From assembly GCF_964194155.1 (NCBI RefSeq), contig NC_135895.1, positions 59,086,001-59,150,000 on the forward strand: a DNA stretch of 64,000 nt, written 5' to 3'. Below, piece by piece: positions 19,123 to 53,400 of the stretch. The DNA comes from Cetorhinus maximus. Its lineage: Eukaryota. The notes beneath the pieces are model-generated. The model was given only the letters and a program-made list of their open reading frames with translations. It made no database searches and was not told the DNA's origin. Positions within the stretch are counted from its first letter, which is position 1. Each line of letters starts with the position of its first letter. Both the position numbers and the translations under genes were made by a program.

Positions 19123-22100
19123 GAATTATAGAATGGTTACGACGTGGAAGAAGGCCATTTGGTTCATCATTTGTGTTAGCCCTCAGCAAGAGCAACTCAA
19201 CTAGTGCCACTACCTGCATTTTCCTTGTAGCTCTGCAAATTTTTTCTCTTCAGATTATCCAATTCCCTTTTGAAAGCCACAATTGAATCTGCCTCCAACA
19301 CACTCCCAAGCTGTGCATTCCAGATCCTAACCACTGGCTGCATTTTTTTTAAAAAGGGCTTTTCCTCATGTCACCTTGCTCCTTTTGACAACACCTTAAA
19401 TCTGTGTCCTTTGGTTTTTGATCCTTCCATGAATGGGAACATTTCTACCCAAACTACTCCGTCCAGACCCCTCATTTTGAACACCTATCAAATCTCCTCT
19501 CAACCTTCGCTAAGGAGAACAGCCCCAGCTTCTCCAAGCTATTCATGTAGCTGAAGTCCCAAATCCCAGAACCATTCTCATAAATCTTTTCTGCACCCTG
19601 TCTGCATTCGTGTCCTTCCCAAAGTGTGATGCCCAGAATTGAGTACAGTACTGCAGTTGGCACCAAAGCAGCAATATATAAGGGTTCCTCATAACTACTT
19701 CCTTGTTTTTGTACTACAAGCCTTTATTTATAAAACTCAGAACCCCGTATGTCTTTTTAACCTCAATAATTTGTAGCCATATAACCCCCAGGTCTCTGTT
19801 CCTGCGCTCGCTTTAGAATTGTGATCTTTATTTTATTCTCATTCTTCTTCCCAGAATGTATCACTTCAAAAGTCTCTGTATTAACTTCATCTACCACATG
19901 TCTGTCCGTTCCACCAGATTGTTCGCTTGAAGTCGATCATAATCTTCCTCACAGTTCACAAGACATCCAGGTTTTGTAATATCCACAGGTTTTGAAATTG
20001 TGCTCTGTACACCTGAGTGTAAGTTATTACTATATATCAAGAAAAGTAGTGACCCTAATAATGACCCATGGCAACTCGACAACAGATCATCTTTCAGCCT
20101 GATAAACAATTATTTATCACTACCCCATTTAGACCATAAGACATAGGAGCAGAAATTAGGCCATTCGGCCCATCGAGTCTGCTCCGCCATTCAATCATGG
20201 CTGATAAGTTTCTCAACCCCATTCTCCCGCCTTCTCCCCGTAACCTTTGATCCCCTTACCAATCAAGAACCTATCTATCTCGGTCTTAAATACACTCAAT
20301 GACCTGGCCTCCACAGCCTTGTGTGACAATGAATTCCATAGATTCACCACTCTCCGGCTAAAGAGGTTTCTCCTCATCTCTGTTCTAAAAGGTTTTCCCT
20401 TTACTCTGAGGCTGTGCCCTCGGGTTCTAGTCTCTCTAATGGAAACATCTTCCCCACGTCCACTCTATCTAGGCCTTTCAGTATTCTATGAGTTTCAATC
20501 AGATCCCCCCTCATTCTTCTAAACTCCATCGAGTATAGACCCAAGAGTCCTCAAACGTTCCTCATATGTTAAGCCTTTCATTCCTGGGATCATTCTCGTG
20601 AACCTCCTCTGGACCCTCTCCAGGGCCAGCACATCCTTCCTGAGATACAGAGCCCAAAATTGCTCACAATATTCTAAATGTGGTCTGACCAGAACCTTAT
20701 AAAGCCTCAGCAGCACATCCCTGCTCTTATATTCTAGTCCCCTCGAAATAAATGCCAACATTGCATTTGCCTTCCTAACTACTGACTCAACCTGCAAGTT
20801 AACCTTAAGAGAATCCTGGAGTAGGACTCCCAAGTCCCTTTGCACTCCAGATTTCTGAATTCTCTCCCCATTTAGAAAATAGTCTATGCCTCTTCTTCCT
20901 ACCAAAGTGCATGACCTCACACTTCCCCACATTGTATTCCATCTGCCACTTCTTTGCCCACTCTCCTAACCTATCCAAATCCTTCTGCAGCCTCCTCGCC
21001 TCCTCAATACTACCTGTCCCTCCACCTATCTTTGTATCATCTGCAAACTTAGCCAGGATGCCCTCAGTTCCTTCATCTAGATCATTAATGTATAAAGTGA
21101 AAAGTTGCGGTCCCAACACTGACCGCTGCGGAACTCCACTAGTCACCGGCCGCCATCCTGAGAAGGACCCCCTTATCCCCACTCTCTGCCTCCTGCCAGA
21201 CAGCCTATCTTCTATCCATGCTAGTACCTTGCCTCTAACACCATGGGCTCTTACTGAGCAGCCTCCTGTGCGGCACCTTGTCAAAGGCCTTCTGGAAGTC
21301 CAAGTAGATAACATCCATTGGCTCTCCTTTGTCTAACCTGCTCGTTACCTACTTAAAGAATTCTAACAGATTTGTCAGGCATGACCTCCCCTTGATGAAA
21401 CCATGCTGACTTTGCCTGATTTTACCATGCACTTCCAAGTATTCTGAAATCTCATCCTTAATAATGGACTCTAAAATCTTACCAACGACCAAGGCCAAGC
21501 TAATCGACCTGTAATTTCCCGTCTTTTGCCTCACTCCCTTCTTAAACAGGGGGGTTACGTTAGCGATTTTCCAGTCCTCTGGGACCCTCCCTGACTCGAG
21601 TGATTCCTGAAAGCTCACCACTAACGCCTCGACTATCTCTTCAGCTATCTCCTTCAGAACTCTGGGGTGTAATCCATCTGGTCCAGGTGATTTATCCACC
21701 TTCAGACCTTTCAGTTTTCCTAGCACCTTCTCCTTGGTAATGGCCACCATACTCACCTCTGCCTCCCCGACTCTCTTGAACTTTGGGGATGTCACTCGTG
21801 TCTGCCACTGTGAAGACTGATGCAAAGTACCTATTCAGTTCCTCTGCCATTTCTTTGTTCCCTACTACTACTTCTCCAGCGTCATTTTCCAGCGGCCCAA
21901 TGTCCACTTTTGCCTCTCTTAGCCTTTATGTATCTAAAAAAAAAACTTATTTGCTGTCACTCCAGCAACTTCATATCCATACTGTCACTTTATTCCAAGG
22001 GCTTTATCTTAGATGACAAGTCTGTTATGTGGCACTTTATCAAATGCCTTTTAGAAGTCCATGTACACCATAGCAGTCCTTATTGTTAACTTATCAAAAA

Positions 22101-23329: not shown

Positions 23330-25010
23330 GCATATTATAGGAACAGGAGTAGTCCATTCAGCCCATCGAGCCTGCTCTGCCATTCAATTAGATCATGGCT
23401 GATCATCTACCTCAAGACCACCTTCCCATGCTAACTCTATATCACTTGATGTCATTAGTCCCCAGAAATATATAGATTTCTGTTTTGAACATGCTCAATG
23501 ATTGAGATTCCACAGCCCTCCGGGGTAGAGAATTCCAAAGATTCACTACCCACCGAGTGAAGCAATTACTCCTCATCTCAGTCTTAAATGGCCTACCCCC
23601 TATCCTGAGATTATGTCCTCTTGTTTTAGACTCACCAGCCAGGGGAAACATCTACATCCACCCTGGTGTATTCTAAAAATTTTGTAAGTCTCAATGAGGT
23701 CACCCCTTGTTCTTTGAAACTCTAGGGAATACAGACCCAGTCTCCCCAAACTCTCATAAGACAATCCCCCCGTCCCAGGAATTAATCTGGTGAACCTCCG
23801 TTGCACTACCTCAATGGCAAGTATATCCCTCCTTAGATAAGTGGACCAAAATTGTACAGAATAATCCAGGTGAGTTCTCACCAAGGCTCTATATAACTGC
23901 AGCAAGATATCTTCACTCCTGTACACCAATCCCCTTGTGACGAAGGCCAACACACCATTTGCCTCCCTAATTGCTTGCTGCACCTGCATGCTAACTTTTA
24001 ATGACTCATGAACAATGATATCCAGGTCCCTTTGCATGCACACACACACTTCCTAATCTCTTACCATTTAAAATATAACCTGCCTTTCTGTTTTTCCTAC
24101 CAAAGTGAATAACTTCACACTTTTTCACATATTTCATCTGCCATGTTCTAGTCCATTCACTTAGCCTGCCCAGCTTCTCTTGAAGCCGCCTTGCATCATC
24201 CTCACAATGTGCGTTCCCACCCAGTTTGGTGTATCAACAAATTTGAAAATATTACAATTGGCCCCCCATATCCAAATCATTTATATAGATTGTGAACAGC
24301 TGTCGACCAAGCACTGATCCTTGCGGTACCCCACTAGTAACAGCCTGCCATCCTGAGAATGATCCATTTATTCATACTCTGCTTTCTGTCTGTTAACCAA
24401 TTCTCAATCCATGCTAGTGAATACCAATACCTTGTGCTCTAATTTTATTTGCTAACTTCCTCATGTGGGACCTTATCAAAAGCCTTCTGAAAATCCAAAT
24501 ATATCTTTTCCACTGGTTCTCCTTTATCAATGCTACAAGTAACATCCTCAAAAACTCCCAGCAAGTTTGTCAAACATGATTTTCCTTTCGTAAATCCACA
24601 TTGACCCTGCCCAATTTTACCATTCTTTTCTAAATGTCCAAGTATCACTTGATAAGATGATTCTAGCAATTCCCTACTACTTACGTCAAACGAACAGTTC
24701 TGTAGTTCGCCTTTCTCCCTCTTAAATAGTGGGGTTGCATTTACTACTTTCCGATCACAGGCACCTTTCCCGAACCTATAGAATTTTGAAAGATAACCAC
24801 CAATGCATCCACTATCTCTCTAGCTCATCTGGTCCAGGGGATTTATCAACCTTTAATCCAGTTAACTTTGAGCACTGCATCTTTACTAATTTCTTTTAGT
24901 TCCTCAGTTTCACAAATCCCTTGGTTGCCTAGTATTTATGGGAGATTTTCTGTATCTTCCGTAAAGACAGATGTAAAGTGATTTTAGTTTCTCCACCATT
25001 TCCCTGTTCT
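23330..25010 (-). mobile_element. CR1 LINE fragment
   Basis: ORFs with [36 protein letters not shown] and TRGHNLRI. Confidence 0.9.
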
Positions 25011-29400: not shown

Positions 29401-32400
29401 AACATCATGCTGCCCTGCTGCTGTTGCATTGTGCCTGAGTGTGGGCCTGTATGCTAATGCAGAAAGGGTTGTGATCCTCCAAGGGCTGCACTTCTACTTC
29501 ATACAAAAAGTAATGAATTAGAAATACTTGAACATCCTATTCATTTATAGCACAGAAGAAGACGAATAGCTTCTATGCTGGCTCTCGTAGAACAATCTAG
29601 TCAGTCACATTCCTGTCCACCCCCATTGTCCTGCAAGTTTAAATGTACAGTGCATAAACCAGCCCTAGCCTCTTAGTTTAAGAAAAGAGTTTGACCAATC
29701 CGAATTTCTTTCTCTCCTCCCATCAATTGGGGATCCTGGTGAATGCCATTCACAACATACCACTGAATGTAATTTATTCTCCACTAGCCAGTAACACTCA
29801 GCAAAGGTAAAATTGAAGAAAAAATTCTTGATTGATTCAAAAGACTGTAAAGCACTGATTGTAATAGTGTTTGAAATAAGTATTATGTGGAAAAGGTTTA
29901 AATAAAGACTGGTGTAAGTTTTTCTTCTTTAATCTGTGGTAGGTCCTTTCCTGGTCACAGAAATTCAAAGCTATTAACACAACAGAAACAGTAGCGAAGT
30001 TTACATTTGAAAAGAAACGACTTGTGAATTCACATAATCACAATGAGTAGACCACAATTTTAGATGTTTTACCTGTTTCTCACTGACTGCCATAAACAAA
30101 ATCCGGAAAGTATGATTGCAAACAAGAATGTTACTGCAATGACCACCACTATGATGGACTTGCTGTCAGAGTGTGGAAGAATACCTGAAGGAAAAGAACA
30201 TTTCAGTTTCAATTCACTGATCAGAATAACAACTTCAGATTGACCAACCTCATGCAGTCTGTAATTCCAAAATATTGACCAACTTCCCCTTACAACATTG
30301 AGAACTGTTAATTCTTGTCCATCCAATTTTCTCTGTTCCTTCTAAACCACTAAAGACATCTGACCAATGCTGGGATATGGTCACATTCTGAGATCTCGTC
30401 CAAGTGTTATCCTTCACATGAACATTTAGACATTTTGAAATCTGGCCCCGAGTGAAATAATTTACATGCCTTTAAAATGCCACCAGTGTACGTCGTTATG
30501 GAGGTAGGTGGAGCTTAGGAAGGTTCTCTGGTTTCCATTTATCTGGGTGTTTGCTGTGAGAGTCTGCTGAGATGGTTAGGACCTCGTGGTTTGCAGCTCA
30601 ATGAGCATAGATAGCCAAAGCAAATGAGTGTTTAGGCCTGCACTGTAAGCAGAGTAAAAAAGCAACTTCTTCATCTTTGACTGTGTGGAATGCTGGCAAG
30701 ATTTAATCTGTTTGAACTTTAGTGAGGGAATAGAAACTTGAAGATTGCTTAGTTTGAAACTAGTGGAAGAATCTACAGTGGTCCCCAGAATCTTGTGGCA
30801 AAGAAAGCAACCAGCAGATTAGCTTGCGAAGTATTGGAAAAGTATCCAGAACAAGGGACTGAGACATCCAGTCAAGAGATGGTAAATGAAAGTTTTGTTG
30901 TTGAGAATAGCTAGAGCTGAGGAGAGTTCTCCAGAAAACTGGCATACTTATGGGTGGTCCCTTCAGAAGTAAATAACTTTAGGATTGATGTGTCTTAAAA
31001 GCGAATTCCTGGGGAAGGTAAGAAGTAAACCTGAGTGCATAACATAGGTAGTTGTAAACCATTTTGTTAATAGTGTTTCTTTTTGTCTTTCATACACAAT
31101 AATGTTTGTTTTAGACGTGAAACCTTGTGATGAAGTTCTACTGGTTAAAGCGAGGTGTTCAAATTTCCCTTTAATTGTTAATGGTCCCTAACTGGATTGT
31201 AACACTTGAAACATTCAGAGTTCTGTTACACTTTCTTTCTTACTTTGGCTGAAGTAAAATCTGTGTCGTTCTCCATTCTTCCCTTCACCAGCTCTAGTGA
31301 CTGCTTTCATCCACACAATATATCCTGTTCCAGGTTTCAGATCTGGAATTGAGTAATTACTGCTGGTTGGGTCAATAGGCCCTACAAAACAGCAAAAACA
31401 TACAGGTTATTGACCCTTAATGAATCTATTCCAGATTGTTCTTTTGTTGGCGTCTGTAGTACTTTCTTTCATCTCCCCCATTTCTCCCCTTCTATCTGGT
31501 TGGTGGTGAACCAACAGTGAACCAGATCAGTTGAACTGGAATTCTGGGCCAATTATTTCTCTTCTCCTAACTGGGGTCACTGAGGTAAACTATAGCATCT
31601 TGACTGCCACCTTGGGTAACTCTGCACAGATCATTAATTGAATCTGGGGCTTCCTGATCTGTATGACTATTCACAAGACCACATAGTGGATGTCCAACTG
31701 AGTCATGAAGGGAGGGGAGGAGCCCATTTCCAGGTTTCTTGCATTTTAATAGTGAATCCAGTGAGTGCATTTTGCTTTTGTCTATGTTTAAAATCTATTT
31801 TCACTTTTCTTCACTTGGGTCTCCATGAGGCATGCAGTGTAATCAGTTGAGGGTAGGCTCTTACCTAATCTCTGACTATTGCAAACATCACATTCAAAGT
31901 CAAGATATGAGGATAAAAAAGTTGAACTGCATTTTATTCAATGATCACGTGGTTTGGTACAGTACAAAGGGAGCCATCTGTGCATGTGCTGTATCTGCAT
32001 GTCACTACTCATACGTTAAATCAAATCCATTTTCATCCTGACTCCTGATTATCAATGTACTCTTAGTTGCCAGTGTGAAACATGAACTTAATTAGTTGGA
32101 GGCAGCCAGTTTGTAGATACTGTGTGTCAAACCTTCCTTCCTGTGACATCATGGATAGGTTTAGTGGCATGTGGGTCTATTCATGATATCACATGCAGGG
32201 GAATTTCACACTCACTGGGGTACTTTTTCTTTTTTAAAGAGTACAGATTTTTCTGAGTGGAAAATAGTGGGGAGAGAGTTCAAAACCTTTCAATATGCCC
32301 TGTCAGTTAAGGTTCCCTGCAATCCAGCACATAGCTCATTAAACTCACTGTCTCCCTTAAATTGTTTTAGCAGGTTTTTCTAGAATGTAAACATGTATGA

Positions 32401-35400
32401 GTGAGAGAGAAATACTGATGAGTATAGTTATTAAACTGCATTTCTGTTTTGTCATGCAACTTAGATTGTGTGACTTTTCAATAAAATGCATTTCTTCTTT
32501 TAAAAAGTAGTAACCCAAGACCACATATTTGATCAGACTATTGGAATAATCATTTAGAAATAAAAGGAATAATTACTCATTTCAAATAATTAGTCATTTC
32601 AAAATGTCACTATGTATCAAAAGTAGCTGTTAAAGGATTGAGTGATGCAGTCCGTTAAAAATCATTTTGTCTTTGGAACTTGTTTTGGACCTTTGGAACC
32701 CAGCTCTCAATAGTGTGATGGAAGTCTCATTGTTGTCTGGTTGTAAGCACGTTATGTGAAATGATTTGCCAAGAGCCTAAATCTAATTAATTGCACAAAA
32801 CCCTACTTAAGGGATTTTCAAATTCCCAATTGTGGCAGGAGGCAGAAGTAGAGCTGTCACTCTGAGTCATGATTGGGACATTCTTATCTTTTAACTCATG
32901 CACTGGGCACAATTTGTAGGAGAAATATTGCATTACCACTATTCCAAAAATTCACCCCCCACCCCTGTAAAATATGAAAACTTAACTAGATTTCAGTAAT
33001 TTTCAAGATAAAACAATGAACTACTTTCCTCCTGTTTTTTTAATCTTATTTTTATTTTCAGAAGCTATAGCATCTAAGGCATATTTATGTGTGTATGTTT
33101 TTGAATTTTCCATTATGTTTCAGATGTCACAATTTATATTACACACAATTGGTCCATCTTAAAAATGCACAAAGGGAGGCGGGGATCTATTCGCTGACTG
33201 AGATGACATGACCTTTGTGCAAGTAGCAGAATCAAGTAGTTATCAAGGTAAAGAACTTTAAACAGTAATTGTATTAGTACCTAATTGACTTCCAGGCCTA
33301 CTTATTTAGATCATGTCCTCGTAGGAATGACTGAGCAGTGGCCATAACCCGAGACCAGGTTAGCAGCTCAATGTCACAATTTTGGGGTCCAATGCCACAG
33401 GAGGTCAGTTTGTTAGCCAAGATTGTTCTATCATTAAAGTAGAAATTGGATAAATATTCAAAGCAGAAGAAAATTCAGAACTTCATGGAGAGAACGCAGC
33501 AATGAGATTTAGTTAAAAGCAAAAAACTGCGGATGCTCGAAATCCAAAACAAAAACAAAAATACCTGTAAAAACTCAGCAGGTCCGGCAGCATCTGCAGA
33601 GAGGAACACAGTTAACGTTTCGAGTCCAAATGACCCTTCAACAGAACTAAGTAAAAATAGAAGAGAGGTGAAATATAAGCTTGTTTAAGGAGGTTGGGGT
33701 TGTTGGTGGGGGGGGGGGGGGGGGGGGTGGGACACGTAGACCTGGATAGAGGGCCACTGATAGGTGGAGATAACCAAAAGATGTCACAGGCAAAAGGACA
33801 AAGAGGTGTTGAAGGTGGTGATATTATCTAAGGAATGTGCTAATTAAGGGTAGAAAGCAGGACAAGCAAGGTACAGATAGCCCCAGTGAGGGTGGGGTGT
33901 GGTGAAGGAATCGAAAAAGGCTAAAAGGTAGAGATAAAACAATGGATGGAAATACATTTAAAAATAATGGAAATAGGTGGGAAAAGAAAAATATATATAA
34001 ATTATTGGGAAAAAAAGGTGGGGATCGGAAAGGGGATGGGGATGGAGGAGAGAGTTCATGATCTAAAATTGTTGAACTCAATATTCAGTCCGGAAGGCTG
34101 TGAAGTGCCTAGTCGGAAGATGAGGTGCTGTTCCTCCAGTTTGTGTTGCATCCGCCCTCACACCTTCCTCTCCCTCCCAGAAACATGATAGGGTCCCCCT
34201 TGTCCTCACTTATCACCCCACCAGCCTCCGCTTTCAAATGATCATCCTCCACCATTTCTGCCAACTCCAGCATGATGCCAACACCAAACACATCTTCCTT
34301 CACCCCCCCCCGGCGGCATTCCGCAGGGATCGTTCCCTCCGGGACACCCTGTTCCACTCTTCCATCACCCCCTATACCTGAACCCCCTCCACGGCACCTT
34401 CCCATGCAACCGCAGAAGGTGCAACACCTACCCCTTTACTTTCCCTCTCCTCACCGTCTAAGGGCCCAAACACTCCTTTCAAGTGAAGCAGCATTTCACT
34501 TGCACTTCCCTCAATTTAGACTACTGCATTCGTTGCTCCCAATGTGGTTTCCTCTACATTGGAGAGACCAAACGCAGGCTGGGTGACCGCTTTGCAGAAC
34601 ACCTTCGGTCTGTCTGCAAGCATTACCCAGGCCTCCCTGTCGCTTGCCATTTCAACACTCCACCCTGCTCTCATGCCCACATGTCTATCCTTGGCCTGCT
34701 GCATTGTTCCAGTGAAGCTCAACGCAAACTGGAGGAACAGCACCTCATCTTCCAACTAGGCACTTTACAGCCTTCTGGACTGGATATTGAGTTCAACAAT
34801 TTTAGATCCATCCCCACCCCCTTTTTTTCCCAATTTATATAGATTTTTCTTTTCCCATCTATTTCCATGATTTTTAAATGTATTTCCATCCATTGTTTTA
34901 TCTCTACCTTTTAGCCTTTTTCGATTCCTTCACCCCACCCCACCCCCACTGGGGCTATCTGTACCTTGCTTGTCCTGCTTTCTACCCTTAATTAGCACAT
35001 TCCTTAGATAATATCACCACCTTCAACACCTCTTTGTCCTTTTGTCTGTGACATCTTTTGGTTATCTCCACCTATCATTGGCCCTCTATCCAGCTTTACC
35101 TGTCCCACCGCGCGCCCCCCCCCCCCCCCCCCCCCCCACTTAAACCAGCTTATATTTCACCTCTCTTTATTTTTACTTAGTTCTGTTGAAGGGTCATTTA
35201 GACTCGAAACGTTAACTGTGTTCCTCTCCGCAGATGCTGCCAGACCTGCTGAGTTTTTACAGGTATTTTTGTTTTTGTTGTGAATGAGATTTAGTTTTGG
35301 ATTGCTCTAGCAAAAAACCAACACTGACACAATGGGCTGATTGGCTGCCATTTGGGTTGCGAGCTTCAATGTTTCTAGTCATTACTAAGACCTTGAATTC

Positions 35401-38400
35401 CATTCACAAACAGAATTTCTCTGCAACTATGGGGCAGGAAAGTGGAGTTAATATAAAGTTCACCCTTGATTTCATCAAATGCTGGAGAAGACTCAAGGGG
35501 CCATATGGCCTCCTCCTCCTATTTCTTATGTTCTTAACCACTATTTCGCTGATGCACATACTATAAATTGAAGGGAGCAACTCTGAATTCTCCTCCTGCA
35601 AGTAGATGATGTAGCTTTCGATGCAGCCCTCTTTCTGGTCTTGTGGAACATTCTTCCAGAATATTACAGCAGCATTGTGCTTGAAGACTATAGGCCCTGA
35701 CAGTGGTGCTGCTGAATAAAAAATTGTTAAAAGCCTTGATTAAAATGACATCTCATTACCATAAACACATGTCAATTATTTAGCCAAGGTTTAAATTTTG
35801 CCACTACTTTAATTACCTTCTTGGGCCGAGTAGCTCTGAGTTGACAGTGGTCTTCCTGTCCCACTTTCATAAATGGCATAGACGGAGATCTGAAAACAAG
35901 TCTTGGGCTTTATATTTTCTGTAATACAGTAGATAATAGTTATACCCAAAAGTATTCTGTTCTGCTTAATGTACAGGATGGGGGGAAACAAGAGAAATGT
36001 GTGACTGCTTATTGCAAAAATCCTGGGAAAACCTTTTAGAATCTCGCATACTCGTGGGTGGCTTGTTATAGGAACAGGAGTAAGCCATTCAGGCCCGCAG
36101 ACATGTTCTGCCATTCAATTAGACCACATGGCTGGTCTGTATCTGAACTCCATGACCCAGCTTGGTTCCATAATGCTTAATACCCTTACATAACAAAAAC
36201 AATCCATCAATCTTAGTTTTGAAATTTTGAACAATTGGTGTAAACTGAACAGATTTTTTTGTGTGTGTATAGTGCTTCACCCCTGAATAGCCAGGCTCTA
36301 ATTTTTAGATTATGCCCCCTTGTTCTGAACTCCTGCACCAGAGGAAATAATTTCTTGCTATCTGCCCTGTCAAATCATTTAATCATCTTAAACACTTCAA
36401 TTATCTTCCCTCATTGCTCATGATCCTTTTTACTGTTGTAACCTTCATGAAGATGGATGTAATATTTTTGGGAATATGGTAAAGAAGGCTGAGAGTGTGT
36501 GTGTAATTAAACTGGGGGAAGGTTAGTATAGACATCTTTTCTGTGGGGACTGAGAGATGAAAGGTAAAGGAGCTAGATGCATGCATTTGTAATGAGAGGC
36601 TATGGTGAAGTTGAATGTAAGAGTAAATAGGTTGGGTTTGAAATTTTCATTGTAAGATAAATAAGAACTTGACTCTTCAGCTGTTAAGGTTCAAGGGGAG
36701 TTTAGAAGTGACAAGGGACTTTTGCAACTTTCAAAAGTTTCATATGTAAACAAGGGTCTATTGAATTTTATTTTACCCAAAAGTGGAGGCAATAGGAAAA
36801 CATGAGAAATTTTTATGTTTTGGAAAAATTGAGTTCAAAGAGATGCTTAGAACAATGGAGTCTAAGATCAAAGGGGAAATGGACATTTAAGGAAAGATGT
36901 TTAGTTGTGTTAGTTGTGTGGGGGAGATGCCCTGAGACCAGCTCTGTGCTGAGAAACGTTGTGAATTTGAAGCAGCCATTCAGTTTCAAGCCAGAGAAGT
37001 CTTTGTTTTCGGAGAGCAGTCTGTTCCTGGACTTCGGTTTTTTTCAACAGGAAGAGAGTGAGAAGTCATGTGGCATACTTTATTAAAGTAGCAGCAGGTT
37101 TTCCCTTAGGTAATATTACTGAATTTTATGGTTGAAATCTATGGGAGCTGTTGCCAAGTAGTTTACTTGTGTATTTTGACTAAGGGATTTTTGGGTATTG
37201 TTTTGTAAGACTGTTTAAGTGTGTAATTTCAATCTTGTGTGTGTAATTTTTTTTCTTCTTGTTAATAAATCTTTTAATTTTAAAATCCTAAAAGTGTTAC
37301 TCGGATTTTGTGTTTCTGGGATCAGTAATTTTCCCCATATTTTCAAAATTCAAAAAAGAGTTATGATTAGTAAGGCAAGTTTCCCTCTGGGATTTGGCTT
37401 GCCCAGTGAATAACATCGGTTATGGTAATAACACCTTTCGTGTTTCTTTTTATTTTATCAATGCTATTATTGTCATTGTTCTTCTGAACCCAACCACCAC
37501 CACCCCACCCCCCGCCCCCCTCTTGTTCTTCCCAAGCTCCAAATATGCTACCTCTTCCCTACATTTTCACTATGTTCAAGTCAAAAATGATTTGCTTGCA
37601 CTGTAACTCATTTTTTTCTTTGTTCGGTATAGGCATTGAAAGGTCACTTTGAAAGGAATAGACCCAGTCCATGTGCAATTGCTATTCAAGCTAGTAGGCT
37701 AAGGAGGATCATGTGACATAGATATGAGTTACATAAGCATACAGCTAAGATGCAAGAAAGTACTTATTGTGGGATCGTCGACCTCTAGAATAAATTGCTA
37801 GCTCATGCAGAGTGTGCTGATTTGCTGCAAACATTGAAAAGAAAGCTAAATGAATTCCTGAGAGTGACATATTTTCACATATAAGTCATTTGGAGATCGT
37901 GTTTCCCAGCCAACATAGTCTCTGGAACAGGAAGTTGTAAAGAAATTTTCTTGGGTTTCTCTTAAATTAGCCTGTGATTTTTTAAAAAAAACTCCCAGGG
38001 GATTGCTTGGTTCCCCATTCAGTACCTTCCCCCAGCCCACCCCATCCATATTACTGTACTCTGACATGTGATTCCAACTTGAATACCAATCGGTGCATTT
38101 TCAGTATACACTTGACCATTATACACTTGGTTTGTTTTGTGATGTATATTTATTGCCCACACAGAAACAGGAGGACTGAATTATCCGGCCCTCTGCCCAG
38201 CAGAAACAAGTACTGCCATGAAAATGATGTTCAATCTGCCCATTGCCATGTCCACAGTGATGAAGACAATGCTCCCCACCGGCCTACAGCTGTGCAGCCC
38301 AAGTTAGGCAATAGTCCATTTAAGATGCTAATCTGCATCCTATGACATACTTTGGAGCAGTCATCTATTCTCGCATCACTATTCAATTCTTGCCTTCTGT

Positions 38401-41400
38401 TTTTCAGACATTCCACCTCCCAAGTGTTGCTAGCCTTTCCTGTTTTTGTTTGATTTCCAGCACCTTCAATATTTTGCTTTTTGAATGAGTTGGGCCTACT
38501 AACTTGGATTATGCGCTTTTTCAAAGCTGTGACAAAAGAAAGATTAACGGTAACCTTCTAGTCAGTCAGAACTGTCAAAGTAGGGTTCAAAAGCGTAAAG
38601 ATTACCTAAACAGATTTTTCAATCCTCGGTAGAACAAAGCAACAATAGGTAAGGGTCTTTCTTTGCTGGAATAGCCAAAGTACATAATCTTGTTGCCTGA
38701 CACTAATTGGGAAATAACCCTGTTGAACAAGAGATCAGACAGCTGACTTTGAAGTGTTGCCACATAATACACAGGAGTATAGATCTACCCCATAATATAG
38801 AGAACCTTAAAATCTGAAAATGAACAGAACTCTGGTATCTCGCACTATCATATGAAATTCTGTCATTAAAATACATGATGACCCTTTAGGGTGTTTGACT
38901 GGGACAGAGGTGAAGAAATTTTTTGTTTATTAAACAATAATGACCCACTTTACCTGTTAATGTTGCTGAATGTTTCTGAGGAGGAACTTTAATCCAGTTG
39001 ATATTCAGATTAACTTTGCCATTTACTTCTGTCCATTCCACTACATATCCTTTCACTGAGGCTGACTGGATGTGATTTTCTGGCTCCATCCACTCAATTG
39101 AGAACTGGTTGTTTCCAGCATACATAGCTGAGATGTTTCTTGGTGGAGGAAGATCTGTCAATCAAAAAGTCAATAGATTATAAAAAGTGAGTACAGTCCT
39201 TTAGAGATGTCCAGGTCCTTTGGGCACGTAGCATTTATTCAGTGTGTAGTTGTATCATGCAGATCAACAAAATACTCAGTCAATATCTGGTCTGTGGCAT
39301 GTTATTTCTGCCAGTGCATGGATAATGTCATTGTAAATAGTCTTGACATCTCAGAGTTAGGGAGGGGATATCAGACATGTTGACCAGTTCAAGGAGTGAC
39401 AGCATCTAAGCTATGAGTTAAACTTTGATGCTTGTGACTAATTGGGAATTTTGCATCCAGCTCCCAACTACAAAAGTTTCTCACTGCAGTTTTAAACTTA
39501 AGACCTAAATTGGATGAACCACATCGGCACAACATTTTGCTGTGTTAGTTTAATCTTCTAATTTTGGACAATGCACAGTGATATACTCCCTCCTCAGTGT
39601 TCCACAGTCTTCAGAATATACTCATTGTTTAGGAGGATACCAGTGAAGGAAAAAGTTTTGCAGCTGTCAATAATGATGCTTTCTAATACAACAGGTGCTA
39701 AGTTGGATGTAGGAGTAGCAATGACCAGAGTTATATTGTTTCACCATGTTTCATCTCAAGAGTTAGGAAGGGGATATCAGGCAGGGCTCCTATTGCTGAT
39801 TGCTATCCAATGATCCCTGCTTCAAGTATGCAGCAATGGATATAGTTTGAGAACCGGTTCATCTATGATGTGTCTCACAGTGGAATATCATTGTCTAGTC
39901 TCAAACACCCAAAATAATTACTTGGGGAAGGTGCTGGCCAGCATCCATAGAAACATGTCCCAGCAGGAGCCATAACTTTCAGGAGAGATGGAGAGAAAAT
40001 TACTGAAGAAAAATATCCAAATATATCTGGGAAACATTCAAACAGTGAGTTCTGCTAAGGGAGGTGCAATATAATAATGCTTCATATAGCTGCTCGGAGC
40101 TTTTTTCTTCCTCTCCCATATGTCTAGAGCGTCCTGGGGTACAATTTCATGGAAGCTGATCATGTCTGGTTTTTTTCAACCATATAGATCAGTAAGACCT
40201 CAGGATCAATCCTGGTCTGCATGAAATTACCTGATCTCAGTTGCAGCAGAAATTCGGGTAACAATCAACCTTGGTGATGAACTGAACACAATTTAATTAC
40301 AGCGTTACTTTGTGGTCTTTGTGATTTAGCTCCACCTTAGCAAAATAAGAAATTGTGCATTATATGATGAAACGCTATAATATCTCTATTCTCTCTTTAT
40401 AAACAGCACATCATCTAATTTATCATGAGCAATGCCATGCTACATGTGCAAATGTTTTTAGAAAATTTCAGACCAGGTTTTGTAGGAGAGGTTCCAGTTG
40501 CTGTTCATAAGGCCTCTTCCCTCTAATGAAATCTGGTCTTCTATTGTAAAAGAATTCAAACATGTTGTCCCAAATTAGCCACTTGTGTCATGTATGGCTC
40601 CTGTCTTTTTGCAATTGTTAACTTACTTTCATGAAGGTATGTTCTTTGGAATTTCTCAAGGGAAAAGGAACATATAAGCGGAGCACTTATTGTTCAAAAT
40701 AACTCTCCTTTATGATGCTGTTACAGTTTTGAGGTTTTATGTTTGATAACCCTGTATTTTCTCAGCTTCCTGCCACTGAGATGCCATTAGTTTGGCAGAA
40801 ATATAGTAGAAACCTTGTTCACACAGTGTAAAAAGTTTGAGGAAACTCAAGGCTATAATCTCTGGTTATATGTCTGCAGTCTTTTGTAAGCAGACCTCAG
40901 ATCCCTACAAAGCATCTTTATTTCGCCAAATATTGAGATAATATTGAGTGCATGGCCAAGGAATTGTAACAGAATCCTTGTTCTGTATACCTGCTACTAG
41001 GATACACGTGAATTCTTCTGTCTTTATGTAAGGTGAACTGCATAGAATGATAAACAAAAACAGAATTACCTGGAAAAACTCAGCAGGTCTGCCAGACCTG
41101 CTGAGTTTTTCCAGGTAATTCTGTTTTTGTTTTGGTGCCAGACCTGCTGAGTTTTTCCAGGTAATTCTGTTTTTGTTTTGGATTTCCAGCATCCGCAGTA
41201 GCTTTTAGCTTTTTGTTTTTATGCATAGAATGATATGTTGATAGGGTGCGATGAAGTATGGTGAGAGGAGGCTCATGTACAGAATAAACACCAGCACAAG
41301 CCTGTGGGGCCAAGTGACCTATTCCCGTGTTGTAAAATTCCATGTAATTCGAAGAGGCAAATTCAACCAGTGTCTCTACCCTGGATATTATTTGGTGCCT

Positions 41401-44400
41401 TCTGCTGGAATTATGAATGTTACGTGAGTAAAGAATGATGCTCAATTAAACGTCACAATTAAACACCCAGCCAGTATATATGAAGAACAGCCATTTGAAT
41501 AGGGGAAAGCTGGCACTTGTAGAACCTTCGACCAGCACAAACTCGGGTTTTCAGGAGAAGGTTAGCTGGTTGGAAGTGGGGGGAAGAATAGGAGGCAGCT
41601 GAACAAAAAAAATTATATTTTAATGTTTCTCTTCAGTTTTTCTTCTCCTGATAGTTGCCCCTCATTCTCTCAAAACTGATAATGTTGCAAGAAGGTCTGA
41701 TGTAAAAACAGAAGCCTTTCTTTTACCTGTGAGGTGTGATATGTGGAGTTGAGTAGGTGGAGAGTTCCCCTTGGAGTTGTAAGCAGATACAGTGACGGTA
41801 CAGCCTGTCCTGGGGATTCCTATGGTGTACCTAGTCTGCTGTGCCCAGATGGTTGCATTTTCCTTTGTGCTTTTCCAAAGTGTTACATTGTAACCCAGGA
41901 TTCTTCCTCTGCTTTCAAGCACCTTGAGGGCCTATGATATTAAAAGCTGGTTAGTTAATTTTCTCCTCTTTAGGATTCAAGTTTAAAAAGATAGCAAACA
42001 CTTTGTTAATAAATACTGCTTTCGTCCCTCACCAGTAATCTCCAGTTTAAGGAAATAAAACAATCACATATTGAAACTAAGTCATGCTTTCAATGTTTTT
42101 TCGCCTTAGATGTGATGGGTGCATTTTTTTGCTGAGTTGCTAGGTAATTGAACACTGCTTCATTGCGCTAAGAGTTGTTTTGTTTCTTCCACATTGGGAT
42201 TTATTTTATCCTGAAAGAAGAACAATTATTGAGACTCTAAGGACAGTCTCAGTATCATTATTTAAAACGACAGGAGGTTAGGTTTATTTAGATGCAAACA
42301 GGCTGAATTCAAGCTGTGAACACTGGAGCAAATTAAATGTATAAAAATTGCAAAACTCAAGTAGTAGATACTCTTTCCATAGAGTAGTGGCTATAAGAAA
42401 TAGACATCTAACTAAATCAGTCAAGAGTGAATTGACTTGGATGAGTATCTATTAAGTACAGAGTTGAAGGTTATAGGACAAGTATTAATATAGGTACTCC
42501 CCAGAATCTAGGTAAGTCATTGTGCAATGCCGCTGGTTAGAGTTGTAAGTGAGTATACAGTCACAGAAAAATTATGGGATTGATTTTGAATTCGATGCTC
42601 TGGTGTAAAACTGTCATTGCAACCTGTCACCTGTTTTAGAAAGCACACAAGTTTAATTACCATTGAACCCATTTTGCCCTCGGGCAGCATGTTGAAAATC
42701 TATCTCAATAAATTTTAAGTTTACTTTTTTTAGGGGTGGGGGGGTTAGGGGGGTGATGATGGTTGGGTGTCAGCATTCTCTTCCTGGAGTTTATAGTTGG
42801 CCAATTAAATTACAGGACTGAGTGCATCATGATGAGAGCACAACTGGAAAAAAAATACACATGATGTGCGAGAAGACCTGGCTTAAACTAAAAGAGTTTT
42901 CTCTTACTTCAGTTATTCTTCAGTTCCTAAACGTACCCACTACTTTATATATAAAACTGTTCTCATTTGCAGCTGCCTGTGAAACCTTGAATCTTGGGTG
43001 ATGTGAGCAAAAACTGCACATTCATGAGTTTGGTGTTAGAGAACAGCCACAAATTGAATGATCCTCTGGTTAGGACTGAAGTTGAAGCTACAGAACCCTT
43101 ATTGAAATTCAACCCGTGAACTTTAAAAGAGCCTTGAGTGTGAATCTAATCTTTAGCAACACCTTAATTCAGATGATAAGAATCATGCTTAATTAGCTTA
43201 TCTGATAGCTCTTGAACAAAGGGCTTTTTTGCTATGAACACTTTTTTTCAAAATTTATACCCAGTATATATCAGAGGAATGCTAAGAGTGCAGTATATGT
43301 ATATAATACATATATTGCATATCTGGCACAATGAAAAAGACTTGCATCTATTTCATGCTTTTCATGATCTTAGGATACCTCGAAGTGATTTACAGCTAAT
43401 GAAAGACTTTTGAAGTGTAACCACTGTTGTAATGTAGAAAATGGGATAGCCAATTCAGCACACAAAGTTCTCACCAACAGCAATGTGATTTTTTTGTTAT
43501 ATTCGTTCATGGGATGTGGGTGTCACTGGCCAGGCCAGCATTTATTACCCACCCCTAATAACAGGATAATCTGTTTTTTATAATGTTGATTGAGGGAATA
43601 AATACTGGCCAGCACACTGGGAGTAATTCCAACTTTCTTTAAAAGAATGCCATGAGATCTTTAAGCCCTCCTGAAAGAGTAGACAGGGGCCCTCGTTTTA
43701 AGATGGCACCTTTGGTAGTACAGCACTCCTCAGTACTGCACGATCTCCTGACTCAGAGTGGGAGTGCTAACAGTTGAACCATGGTTTGATACTATGCATT
43801 TATATAACCAATACAACCAATGTTCAGTCCTGATAAAAGGTCATGAAACGCTGGGCTAGATTTTCATTCTCAAGGTGGGTAGAGCCTGCCCGGCCGGGGA
43901 GAAAGTGACTGCAAAGACCGAATTTTCATTGTGAGGAGTTGGCTACAGGGTGCAGTCAGGCCAGCCAACCTGGGAAAAGGTTTGGCAATTGGGGATGACC
44001 TAGCCAGCAACACCCACATAAAGTAAAGTACATGGGACATCTGGTTTGGTAGTCAATGGTTTATTTACTCATGTTTGCCTGGTAAGTATAACTAGACATT
44101 GATTTAGTGATTGAAATCTCTTACCTTCCATAAGAGAGTGATTCGCAGGTTGTTAGGATCTGACAGGTCCATTGTATACCAGACATCCAGTTGGCCTATG
44201 GGAACTATGCAATAACAAAAAAGAAACTTACTGAAATAAAGTAATAACCTGAAGTAAAAGGTTAATGTATATTCATTGTAAATAGCCATCTTTTTGTGGG
44301 TTTCACTGTAGGTTTCAATGCAGTAACCCTTCACTATCAGTTTGGTGGTGATAAAGCAGAAGGATTAACCAACATTATGCACATATGCGTACAATGTCAT

Positions 44401-47400
44401 CAACATATCCAATATGGAGGCCTGGGTTAGATAGTTCTAAAGTTACCTATTTTCTAATTCCTTAAGTGGAAGTGACTACCCATCCTCAGAATATTAACAA
44501 AATCTGGTGCAATAAGCAAGGGTTGTGTTGCACATTTGCTGTGATTACTCAATCTATGACATTCTGCAAGTTAATACACTATTCATAGAATGCATTCTGG
44601 CGAGTGTGGATTTCGATTTTTTAAACATCAGCATGTGTGCTGAAGTTGAGTATACACCAGAATTGACAGGAACTGAATTACACCCACTGAGCTCCATATC
44701 TGCTGATCACTGTGTAACTGTATTACTGTAACACAAAGTTAATAGATTTAATAATGAAAGCACCTTTGGTCAAATCATTCATTAGTGCATCATGAAGAAA
44801 CTAACGAGGTCAGCATTCTGCTTTATAACTGATCAGGAGCTGTCTGAGTGGGGAGGCAGGGTGTGAAAAGTACAGTACGAGTTAGCAAACAGGCACCCAG
44901 CTAGTGCTGGTCCCTGAAAACCACCCTCTAGGATTTTGTTCACTCATCTAGACTTAGTTCTGCAAACACTCTGGTACCTCATCCATGAAACACTGTCCCT
45001 TATGAGCCAGTACAGTAAACATTGGCAGAATATTTGATTATTGGGAGCACAGCCCTTGTCTCATCTGACTTCCTATATTGCATATTCCAAGAAGAGTCAA
45101 AGGATAATGGTTAGGACCAGGGACTCTGATACTGTAGCCATGGCCTACCACTAAATCAGTTAATTCAATCCAAACTAAGGAATAAAACTGAGGCCAGCTT
45201 ACTCTGTATGGCTCATTACCACAGTCATAATTAAGAAATGGCAATTTGCATCTCCACAACTAAAATAGAATTATGTTCACGCAGTAAAGGAATTATTTTC
45301 ACAGAGTTGACGCAAAACAAATCCAAACAGTACAGCAACGGAGGGGAACTCTACCTGCCTCTGGTGTCTGGCTTACAAAGGAAGGGCTCCAGTCACTCCA
45401 TAATCCTCCGGTATAATGAAACTTTGAGCGAACCTGGAACTTGTATTCTGTGAAATGCTCCAAATCAGTCACCTTGCAACTTGTTGAATTGACTAAGAAT
45501 TTCTGAAACCAAAGCAGAAGGGAGTAAAATACTCTAGCAAATCTTAAGGAACCTGGCTGATGTTGAGCCTCACACAGACTTGCTCTTTTTGGCTTAAAAG
45601 TATAACCTATTTTGATACAATCCTTGCAAGGTTTGGTCATTGTTTTCAGCTCGTGGAATGAATGGGAGCAATGTGATTGATGGCACATGATAGATTCTGT
45701 AGACAATGGCATATTACTGCTGGACACAAGACTACTCAAGCAGCAGTCAGATGCACCAACCATGAGAAGGTCTCTTGTATTGGTATGATCTGAATTTACT
45801 TTTCTGCACACAGATGTTTATGCTCTGCATCCTCAGGCAGTTGATCAGGCAAATAGGTACAGCACACTGCCCCTCAACTCCTGGTTATATCCTTTTATTG
45901 TAGGAGGATTGGTGGGTAAGTGCCATTTATTATTGGTGCAGTGTGGCTTTCCTCCATTGTTGCCATGGAAACCCCATTGTGCCCTGTTTGAAGGGAGTTG
46001 GGGAAATGGCAATCCACAAATTGTAGAAAGGCAAATAACAAAAGTATTTGGCAGGAGCACAAAAAAGTCCAAACTTGTTGTAGAAACAAGAAACAAATCC
46101 TCAAAATGCCTAAACGCTGAATGTCCATTTTTTACGGGCATGATAGCCATTGAAGTGGGGACAGAGGAAAAAGCAATGTTACCACCTCATCTGAATGAGC
46201 CAGAAAAGCCATTGGAGAATAGAGGCACACTGAAGTGGCAGGAATCCAGTGTAGTTACTCTAAATCACATGTTTGCCCAAATACTTATGAAAAATCAAAC
46301 ACTACTTGGTCTCTTGGCTTTTCTAAGTTATCATATGGAAATACTGCAAGTGGAAGAACCAATTTAAAATTAATAAATGTTACCTTTCCCCATTTGCCGT
46401 TCATACTTTGACATTGGATTTCAAACAACTGTGTGTTCTGAAGATCTTGCCAATACACTGTACTAATCATTGGTGAACTGCTGCTGAATTCTACCTTACT
46501 GATATTGGGAGCCTTGGGTTTCACTGAAAAAAAAAATAGATTAAAGTTATAGTCACTCTATTGGCATCAATATATTGATTTATTAATAAGACCCAGGCAC
46601 TGATTAAATGTAGAAGTAAAAATTATGTGCACTGCTTCTTACTGACAGCATCATGTAAAGATCTAACATGTATGCTGTGGGATGCTTGAATACAAATGCT
46701 TAGTGTGTTCATCAGGAATGGTGTACCTGCTATAGTAAACACTGGCAATAGCTCATTGAAAATCAATGTGTTAATACCCATCTTCATATGAGTAAGTCTC
46801 GGTTACATTAATTTGTCAAAGGGTGCAAGATTCATACCTCACTCCAGACAGGCTCTGGAATTCTGGATTGCCACTCAGTGGATACCCATGTCCTATGGGT
46901 GCTCCTTTCCTCATTGTGTAGATTGTGGAAGCCCACAAAACCTTTCCTCTCCAAGGAAAGAGCAAGGAATCTCCCCTCAATATCCTTTGCTCCAAGGAGA
47001 ACAAGCCCAGCCTTTCCAACCTAATCTTGTAACTAAAGTACTCCCACCCCCCATACCTAGAACCATTCTGGTAAATCTGCTCTGCACCCTCTCAAGGACC
47101 TTCATTCTTACGATTTTGTAGTCTCCTTGGCTCTCATCCTTTGGTTAGTTTATTGTTCCACCATACTGCAGTATTAACTAAGGCAACTCATCTCTGAGCC
47201 ATTGGCACTGTCCAGCTCAGACTATGGGGGCCATTTTTGTCTCACTGCTCCTCCATTTTCCAATGTGAATGGGTGGTAACAGGTGCAATGAGAAAAGGAG
47301 TTTCCACCTAAGGCCACCTGTGGAAGTTTTCAAGTGGCCTTCAGTTTAGGTGGTCAGCACTCCTGAACCATACATACATCCAAATTAGGGTCCTGTAATG

Positions 47401-50400: not shown

Positions 50401-53400
50401 AAATTTAATAAAAGTTTACTTATAAGTGATAGACATGTCCCAACTCATGTGACAGTGTCACATGAGGGGACATGTCAGGGAAATTTCATTTGTCTGCATG
50501 TGCCATTTTTAAATTTGGCGCCGTTCTCCCTGAGGCAGCACTTAGCCTCAGGGAGATGAGTGCACTCTTTTGTGAGCGTGCGTGAAAGAGCGCACTCCTG
50601 GCTCAGGGAATTCTCCTCCGCCTGCACAGGGAGCGCATTGCGCTTCCTGGCAGACGTCATGCTGGGTGGGCGTTAACTGGCCCACCCACATAAAATGGGG
50701 CTCCTGAACTCTCCCACCCCGTTGGGGGAGGAGGATACCAGGATTTGGAGATCAGGAAGTACTCACACAGAATTTTCCCCTCACAAAATCAAATGGATAT
50801 TGCAACTTTCACAATGGGGCAGTTTGTACATTGTCTTTGGAAGGAGCAAGCTTCAAGGCAGAATGACCTTTTCTTATACCATGCTTCCTTATGTTTTGAT
50901 GCGTCTCTATCATTTATTTAGTTCATGTTTAAAGGCAACATCAGTGTTGAATCTGGAGAATCAGCTTACCATAAGACATAATTTGTACTTATATGTGTGA
51001 CTTGTCCTATATACCAGCTACACGTTACATCACCACCTCTTCCATTTTGAACACACTTCAAGTTTTGGGGCTGATCTGGAGGATCTGAAACAGCAGAATT
51101 AGGAATTTTTGATGTAGACTTATTTCCTAGAATTGTTAAACGTGTTTATTGTAACATCAAGAGTACATAACACAATGAATTTGTGAATGGCAGGGGTTAG
51201 CATGAAACTCATTTGTGCCAGTAATGTTGCATGCATATTAATAAAGTTAACAATCATAAATAAAGGCAGAAATGCTGTAAATATACATTGTCAATTAGCA
51301 TCTGTAGATAAAAAAGACAATTTAAAGTTTCCCTGCAAGATCCTTTCTTTGAACTCAAAGCTGTCAAGCCCCTTGGTTAGGTGTTGCCTTCTGTACTATT
51401 AATTGAGGTAAGGATGTTGGTGAGAGAACTAGAAGAACTCCCAAGTTTTCTTCAAAGTAGTGTTGTGGGTCCTTAACAACTATCTGAAGCACCAGTGCAG
51501 GCAAATGGCATCTTGGTTTAACATCCAATCAAAAGGCAACACTGCCAACAATGTAGCAATATCTCAGTATCTGGCAGTCTAAACTGATTGGCCTAGACTG
51601 GCAGTTCAAACTCTGATGTGGGGTTCAAATTATAAGCTTCTCACCCAGACTGAGAGTGCTATCCAGTGACCCAAGTTTCTATACCGAGGTCGATTTCGAT
51701 CTGCTGCCGAGAAAAGCAGGTGGTGTGTGGGGCCACTGCATTGCTTGAAGGAGCGAATGGGGAACCTGTCCCACATGTGCTGCCTGCCACTCCTTTGCAT
51801 GAGTGAGACAGGCTGCCAGTGTGACACGGGCTTCCCAATGGCCGGTCATTGATTGGGGGGCAGGAAATTGGGTGCTGTTTAAGGTTTACAGGCTTGCAGT
51901 AGTTTAAACAGTTTAAAGAGGTGCACCTTTATGTGGCCAATGCGTAGAGGGTGCAGAAAGATATGAGAGTTGCAGCAGAGTCCCGAGGGTCTCAGAAACA
52001 GCTATGAAGAGAAGCAGTGCCAATTTCCTCTTGGATAGCTGGCAGGTGCCAAGGCAAGTTGGTGATGGGGCACATGGGCATACAGATAGCATTACCTTCA
52101 GGACCTAGCTGCATTGCAGAAAGAAATTTAATGAAATTACCATGAGTGCCAAGAATCCCTTTCACATTGCTCATTATTTTTGCACAGCCCTGCAGAATCC
52201 CGCCTTTGCCTTAGGATCAATAATTCTTCCATTTGCCCCCTCCCATAACTCTCCATAAGAACAGGGAAAACGTCATTGCACTCACACCCTCAAAATCTGT
52301 TACAGCCTTCACAACCCAAGCCTCCCCTTGACTACACTTGCTGCCAGTTCCTGTCATCATGTACACTAATAAGTTGCTTAATAATGGTGAGAGTTGAAGC
52401 CTTGCCTGGGGCATGTATTTACCCACATCCACTTTTTTTTGCAGGAGAGACTGATGTATTTATTTAATGCAAATGGAGAGTTAAAGAAAACAAAATCACC
52501 CTTACTGATTTCAAAAGCGGTTACAATTATGCAAATACTTCTTTGGCTTTGCATCAGGGAGGCCAGGGAGAGAGTTGGATTTTTCAGCCGCTCATGATGT
52601 TGTAGCATGGTAAAGTGATTATCTGTTTTGCCATTCACACCATCATCTTTCAGGCAGTACAGCTGCCATATTTATATCAATCAACAAAAAAACTGAAAAG
52701 CTTACACAATTTAGTTATTAGTCATAACACTAAGCTCAATTCAATCAATAAAATTAAAAATACCACTTACTGCCAGCTTTAATATCAATTCCACAAATCA
52801 AATATTCAGTGTTGCAATGCAGTTTACAGGCAAAACTGGACCTGGGGTTTTCAAACTTTGGAATGTGTGCAATAACTGCATTTGTGGAGATCTGTACAGT
52901 ATTTAGCCGTTTGGTATTGTCTTTGATAATACGTAGCTGTTGAGCCGTACATTCATTGTAGAATGATCCCTTTAATATACACGATACATTAATGCTCGAT
53001 CCAAGTCTTATTATAGACAAAGGGCTGACTTGCATTTCTCCATTAGCGCAGGATTCTGGAAACAAGATGGCAATATTTTGAAAATCATGTAAAAAGCTAG
53101 AAAAGCTAATGACAATATTAACAGAATGCATTTGTATGATATTTCTCTGTTTTCTGATGATAACCTTATTATTTGATAACATTGCTAATTGTAATTTCTA
53201 TTTTTATGTCCTTAAAATGTCGATCTTAGAATTATTAGAACAGTGACTGCACTTCAAAAGGACTTCAATGATTGTGAAGTACTTTGGGATGTCCTCAGGT
53301 TGTGAATAATGCACTACAAATCTCAACTTTTTTCTTCTTTCTGTCATATGTGGAAGGGGCCTCTCTACTCGTTTAAAAAGATTGTTTAACAGATAAGACA

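Follow-up and report, generated by a model that had tools for sequence, protein, structure and literature searches.

Lineage-wide replacement of the core A6 in the hammerhead motif of an amplifying Penelope-like element of the basking shark

A lineage of Penelope-like elements (PLEs) in the basking shark genome has lost the core A6 of the minimal hammerhead motif carried in its pLTRs. About 50,000 genomic copies have U or C at this position, and amplification went on after the loss, up to near-identical intact elements. From the pattern of sequence change, we lean towards the view that the U6/C6 motif is a slow, dimer-dependent and probably protein-assisted hammerhead that would still be under selection.

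Two motifs of this lineage lie in the window (the whole stretch of 64,000 nucleotides analysed here), with the common layout AGUU-CUGUUGA-A-GGGUC-loop-GACUC-GAAA-C-GUU-AACU and a difference of a single loop base. The copy with loop AUUUA (35179-35217, plus strand) is antisense to the host gene and has its predicted cut after 35213, and the copy with loop AUUUG (33610-33648, minus strand) is sense to the host pre-mRNA, with a predicted cut after 33614. A sequence-only reading had located one motif in each of two pLTR arms and named these scissile positions; the sequence and a regular-expression scan of the window, which gave these two hammerhead-like matches and a third without stems, agree with it. 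An Rfam search of 30000-39000 (E ≤ 10) returned eight matches, none of them a hammerhead. One 14-bp direct repeat, the target-site duplication seen in the sequence at 33501-33514 and 35283-35296, brackets the whole unit, and the two motifs are therefore the arms of a single inverted, 5′-truncated Penelope-like insertion (33515-35282). The inverted, 5′-truncated arm (33515-34148, minus strand), an inverted repeat of about 600 bp, contains the end of the endonuclease frame, the 3′ UTR/pLTR, the hammerhead and a tail with a longer extension. The direct arm (34149-35282, plus strand) contains a broken 3′ part of the ORF, the 3′ UTR/pLTR, the hammerhead and a short tail. In its translation, a GIY-YIG endonuclease frame with CCHH residues (34462-34842, plus strand; Pfam PF01541, E 0.0014, below the curated cut-off) has its Cys linker just upstream of a stop. 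With this frame preceding the motif and the motif placed in the pLTR, the proposed identity as a minimal hammerhead of PLE pLTRs is borne out. A second, more diverged Penelope-like tail fragment lies in the same intron at 38436-38481 and is 74% complementary to 33515-33560.

Since they lie on opposite strands, the two motifs are unable to dimerise in cis, and the "paired" hammerheads of the sequence-only reading do not make a functional pair. That reading had also taken the two copies as separate proof that the variant was parental. They are not independent evidence, because one target duplication flanks both and the arms, which diverge by 4.4% (453 columns), are sisters (96/89) in an early U6 subfamily of the tree described below. 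The conclusion itself stands on other ground: genome counts and the tree agree that the A6-to-U change was present in the parent element and does not reflect decay of single copies.

In the 3.99 Gb searched, the exact U6 (U6U7) motif in the window's context has 16,540 copies, with none for the reversed control; the same context holds 1,259 A6 copies and 218 with U6 and another base at position 7. In a wider stem context, where the tally covers U, C and A at position 6 and leaves out G6, we counted 28,316 U6, 21,369 C6 and 12,237 A6 copies. When the search left the core free except for a pyrimidine at position 6, it returned 64,145 matches in the genome, against 34 for the control. A sample of 88 copies picked by the tail alone, blind to the core, gave the same picture: the motif could be scored in 77 of them, of which 44 have U, 22 C, 9 A and 2 G at position 6. 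The other 15 core positions are canonical in 69 to 77 of these 77 copies, the departures being mostly CpG transitions, and the cleavage triplet is GUU in 47 and GUC in 30, position 17 being C or U only. Search descriptors that require CUGANGA miss about 80% of the motifs (49,685 of 61,922 in the counted context), and hammerhead counts in such genomes are therefore underestimates.

The order of events was read from a tree of the flanking sequence, from which the hammerhead and CpG columns were excluded; its root was placed on long-branched A6A7 copies. It includes 91 of the 213 copies found in the loci, the rest having fewer than 330 aligned bases or less than 75% identity. A clade of 69 copies (52 U6, 15 C6 and 2 A6; support 100/99) is nested among A6 copies, and one U6 copy falls outside it. 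On this tree the order of core change is A6 to U6 to C6, and since C6 needs several changes, it may have had more than one origin or been exchanged between subfamilies.

The youngest elements carry the variant. Intact 917-aa ORFs with RT and GIY-YIG domains were found in three of 36 hand-picked long loci; they are 0.4-0.7% apart and all C6. In two of these loci (L311 and L312) C6 is present in both pLTRs, and the motifs flank the intact ORF on either side. The RVT_1 and GIY-YIG matches (E 2e-6 and 4.5e-4) are both just under the curated cut-offs, and the translation shows a CX4CxxC linker and a CCHH motif. The near-full-length U6 elements that we saw are broken, with frames of 676-808 aa. Divergence between arms has a median of 4.3% in U6 copies (n=12) and is 3.2-4.1% in the A6U7 sister subfamily (n=4), and 0 and 2.1% in two C6 pairs. 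The change is thus not confined to old diverged copies, an outcome that had been set beforehand, together with absence of cleavage, as speaking against the idea: the youngest intact, near-identical elements have a pyrimidine (C6) at this position.

Two derivatives were seen apart from these elements. A young C6 element (L320:1266-5480, minus strand) has a 1405-aa open frame that starts and ends like the 917-aa ORF and is probably an in-frame internal duplication. At L316:4117-9450 and L317 (G000:C1, about 116.80 Mb), a retrozyme-like head-to-tail array of the window's U6 subfamily is made of ORF-deleted units of about 530 bp, each with a hammerhead. Nine units were detected on the plus strand, and two more are implied by the spacing, in addition to inverted units. 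The units differ by 1-8%, indicating that part of the array was duplicated later.

Did the motif simply drift once A6 was gone? We compared the majority letters of the earliest U6 and the youngest C6 subfamily. Between them, 53 of 236 sites changed in the 3′ UTR, 10 of 32 in the adjacent pLTR and 7 of 68 in the tail. In the motif 7 of 39 sites changed: four in the stems, two in the loop and position 6 itself; the 15 core positions other than 6 show no change. The probability of this last result is 0.02 under random placement, and 0.02 or 0.2 under a binomial with the UTR rate or the tail rate (10%), respectively; position 6 was excluded after the fact and the statistic is modest. An alignment of 18 variants, picked by hand, shows pairing at each of its 162 stem cells, with U-A, U-G and C-G as successive states of one pair; because the aligned rows are related, the shuffle value of 1/500 is not a probability. 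Along the tree and the variant listings, about 15 successive changes (the steps being counted by eye) include none in the core, with P about 7e-4 if they were randomly placed. Positions 7, 17 (C or U) and loop II are tolerant, while G8, G12 and the ACGU palindrome are fixed, including CpGs that decay in individual copies. This pattern of change is consistent with what a hammerhead tolerates, position 6 excepted. A dead relic, whose core would have stayed intact by luck over a short time of neutral drift, seems to us quite improbable. It could appeal to the small number of endpoint changes, and to the tail as the neutral rate, under which zero changes at 15 sites are unremarkable. However, 22-31% of sites changed in the UTR and pLTR next to the motif, every stem change retained pairing, one of them by a compensatory path, and the successive changes all spared the core.

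What the loss of A6 should do to cleavage can be judged from other hammerheads. A natural A6C hammerhead cuts slowly but detectably, at less than 0.1 per min (PMC3088659), and is rescued by Mn2+ (PMC3088659, PMC7151607). An engineered A6C cuts at about 4e-6 per min in 0.3 mM Mg2+, with several orders of magnitude lost (PMC7151607), and CUGA-turn mutants were weakly active when all mutations were scanned (PMC9901934). Even canonical minimal hammerheads are poor cutters (PMC4209133). Our literature search found no cleavage rate for A6U. In our folding predictions, the strands of a U6 core pair with each other in an additional helix of 4 bp (P 0.87-0.97). Because A6C is slow, CUGA-turn mutants have low activity and U6 is predicted to add this core helix, the U6/C6 hammerhead would be a slow cutter at best.

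Two ideas about why A6 was replaced were set aside. A self-inhibiting helix specific to U6 does not account for the spread, as the A6U7/GUC variant also has a competing helix and the C6 variants lose the U6-type helix. The second held that A6U7G8 spells an upstream AUG, which U6 removes; it was discarded in view of an AUG that became fixed in loop II of later subfamilies and of another that is retained in the tail.

The 5′ ends of the copies inform on the RNA that was copied. In the tail-selected sample (88 copies), the first four motif bases alone account for 15 starts, the 32 positions that follow for 10, and the cut site for one. Because 15 of 88 begin at the motif against one at the cut site, we infer that the element RNA starts there and that most of the RNA copied was uncut. 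Two foreign bases stand just before the cut site in 233 of 45,440 tails, and one base later in 45 (about 620 against about 180 when corrected for base odds). As a footprint of cleavage this raw excess was dropped, being mostly made of inverted-arm junctions and of indels or point changes. Indeed, the 90 starts examined out of the 233 comprise 53 inverted-arm junctions, many of them using microhomology in stem I, 22 small indels or point changes, one further piece of the same element and 14 unrelated flanks (12 after two were removed by eye). For 5′ ends with unique flanks there was no clear excess at the cut site, about 83 against 48 at the next base (scaled and corrected).

One of the 90 examined starts, at L394:427-505 (minus strand), is joined to a piece of 28S rRNA of about 80 nt in sense orientation, identified from the genome's own rDNA arrays. 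The junction coincides exactly with the predicted cut site, and the two sides have no bases in common; the tail type of this copy goes with U6 in seven of nine scored copies. This fusion is a weak hint of cleavage, and could be due to RNA ligation of the cleaved end or to a template jump of the RT. Rfam gave no gathering-level match for the fusion piece (141 nt) or for 20 loci whose upstream flanks are unique.

These observations bear on a non-cutting motif whose fold or sequence would be kept for protein binding, for translation or as a downstream promoter at the RNA 5′ end, a reading that we find possible but on balance doubtful. It would suit a position 6 that drifted twice, copies that derive overwhelmingly from uncut RNA, and 5′ ends that cluster at the motif start, overlapping the likely start site. 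Moreover, insertion in vitro does not require cleavage (PMC11167929), Naiad PLEs do well although they lack canonical hammerheads (PMC8557442), and the hammerhead fold itself has been proposed as a translation aid (PMC13725137). Against it, the changes follow the tolerance map of a ribozyme, with G8, G12 and ACGU fixed and 7, 17 and loop II free, and the 28S fusion falls exactly at the scissile bond.

Other features of the element's 5′ region were noted. At 35160-35182 of the window, the first bases of the motif follow a pyrimidine tract and AG and look like a splice acceptor, as at helix I of Drosophila Penelope. They also resemble an initiator. The 5′ ends pile up at this site, and the inverted pairs L001/L002, L057/L058 and L059/L060 turn at the exact base. 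The 5′ UTR may also hold an intron of some 86 nt (L220:1480-1570, minus strand; window 35261-35270), with a donor-like CAG/GTA in the tail and, immediately ahead of the ORF ATG, an acceptor-like AAG; it would enclose the tail ends, which are likely RT start sites. No splicing of this intron was seen over L220:1380-1720 in four of the 23 listed public runs (contigs, whose RNA status was guessed), and no RNA ends were visible in them.

The slow, dimer-dependent hammerhead that we favour would work as follows. A master lineage swapped the core A6 for U and later for C, with its remaining core bases and the two stems retained. The element RNA would begin with the hammerhead, and reverse transcription would begin in the tail downstream and read through the uncut motif, the inverted arms forming during integration. 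As the RT would have to read through an uncut motif, slow cleavage would be tolerated or favoured. Its low cost, or its benefit, would explain the expansion that followed the loss of A6. Residual dimer cleavage, probably assisted by a protein, would explain the retention of the catalytic bases and of the palindrome; removal of the first 35 nt or trimming of tandem transcripts are examples of what occasional cleavage could do. There is a precedent in the anole PLE hammerhead, which cuts only with its protein, the uncut RNA being the main insertion template (PMC11167929). A more specific proposal, which we regard as unlikely, is that A6 has become dispensable because the element's protein or a cofactor such as Mn2+ completes the active site. 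Cutting in germ cells would then take place only inside the ribonucleoprotein and would sort the uncut template from the cut form, and the loss of A6 would have been favoured because it spares templates.

The host gene on the minus strand is IL12RB2-like, this being the best PDB match for two of its exons (E 1e-9 and 3e-9). Fibronectin type III (fn3) matches in Pfam were obtained for three of 150 minus-strand frames, among them the frames that hold the fn3 exons upstream (38889-39161, E 5e-6) and downstream (31218-31406, E 1.5e-5) of the insertion, both on the minus strand and given as stop-to-stop limits, not splice sites. More IL12RB2-like exons, one of them with WSDWS, lie on the minus strand at 41665-41931, 45302-45520 and 50969-51145. 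Fragments of LINE-type endonuclease and reverse transcriptase, with weak Pfam matches, occur at 8524-10035, 20808-21834 and 24448-24819 on the same strand.

The immune-receptor intron had been singled out as a special setting, but it is what the copy number leads one to expect. With 64,145 pyrimidine-6 motifs in the genome there is about one per 62 kb, so that one within an intron of a 64-kb window is no surprise, and the position in an immune gene is likely incidental. The suggestion that the host-sense copy is masked by its earlier-transcribed complement fits the predicted duplex of the arms, −244.5 kcal/mol over 150 nt. On this folding, the window copies are passengers, on opposite strands and masked by a long duplex in the host pre-mRNA. 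It is scarcely credible that the pair cleaves the pre-mRNA of the IL12RB2-like gene and so regulates it. One copy is indeed sense to this pre-mRNA with an intact motif. However, besides the motif density and the complementary arm being transcribed first, no same-strand partner motif lies within the window, and the divergence of the arms matches that of their subfamily. The locus itself is ordinary and of no special importance.

The interest lies in the lineage. Why PLEs retain a hammerhead is a standing question (PMC8557442, PMC11167929), and A6, U6 and C6 are found here in one genome, in a dated order and with intact young elements, as a natural experiment. Comparing cleavage rate and transposition across the three would tell whether catalysis, the fold or neither is selected. 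A PLE lineage moving without cleavage, which the sequence-only reading had held out as interesting, has already been shown in vitro for the anole PLE (PMC11167929). The association of minimal hammerheads with PLE pLTRs (PMC4209133) and a natural A6C elsewhere are likewise known. Our full-text literature searches returned no report of A6U in PLE or shark hammerheads, nor of a lineage-wide path from A6 to U to C in an active PLE.

Compared with the minimal hammerheads of metazoan PLEs (PMC4209133), the motifs share the pLTR location, in the window as in L311 and L312, and the same architecture: a helix I of 4 bp (4-5 bp in the class), a helix II closed by G10.1-C11.1, the extra base between A9 and G10.1, no helix III, and the palindromic A15.1-C15.2-G16.2-U16.1. 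Oppositely oriented copies also occur nearby, as here, and GUU is a cleavage triplet of the NUH type. The core of that class is C3 U4 G5 A6 N7 G8 A9 / G12 A13 A14, whereas both window copies have U at position 6 and are otherwise canonical; with a base other than A at this position, the motif is therefore a variant and not a plain member. The core variant described for the class in the text examined, which makes no mention of sharks, two supplement files included, is U3-A8 (Cervera and de la Pena 2014, PMC4209133).

As in the PAc hammerhead of the anole Poseidon (Frangieh et al. 2024, PMC11167929), the motif lies upstream of the internal RT starts that make the tail, and the main template there is uncut RNA, as inferred here. 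In PAc the ORF starts inside stem II, whereas here the ATG is about 180 nt downstream of the start of the motif, and unlike Poseidon the basking-shark element has a Cys linker of the Neptune type. With the Neptune-type EN+ PLEs (Craig et al. 2021, PMC8557442) it shares the RT, the CX4CxxC linker (defined as CX2-5CxxC) and the C-terminal GIY-YIG with CCHH, as well as the partial tandem with an inverted 5′-truncated arm and a tail at one end; this likeness rests on ORF architecture, and Nematis has the same linker (PMC8557442). Non-LTR retrozymes are head-to-tail, non-coding hammerhead repeats, whereas the two copies in the window are inverted relative to each other and accompanied by remnants of an ORF. 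Finally, the A6C hammerhead of phage Bcep176 (PMC3088659, PMC7151607) also has a natural pyrimidine at position 6, and being slow in Mg2+ and active in Mn2+ is a feature of the phage ribozyme. It is rare and known from one phage, whereas the basking-shark lineage carries both U6 and C6, in about 50,000 copies, on a eukaryotic minimal scaffold of the dimer type.
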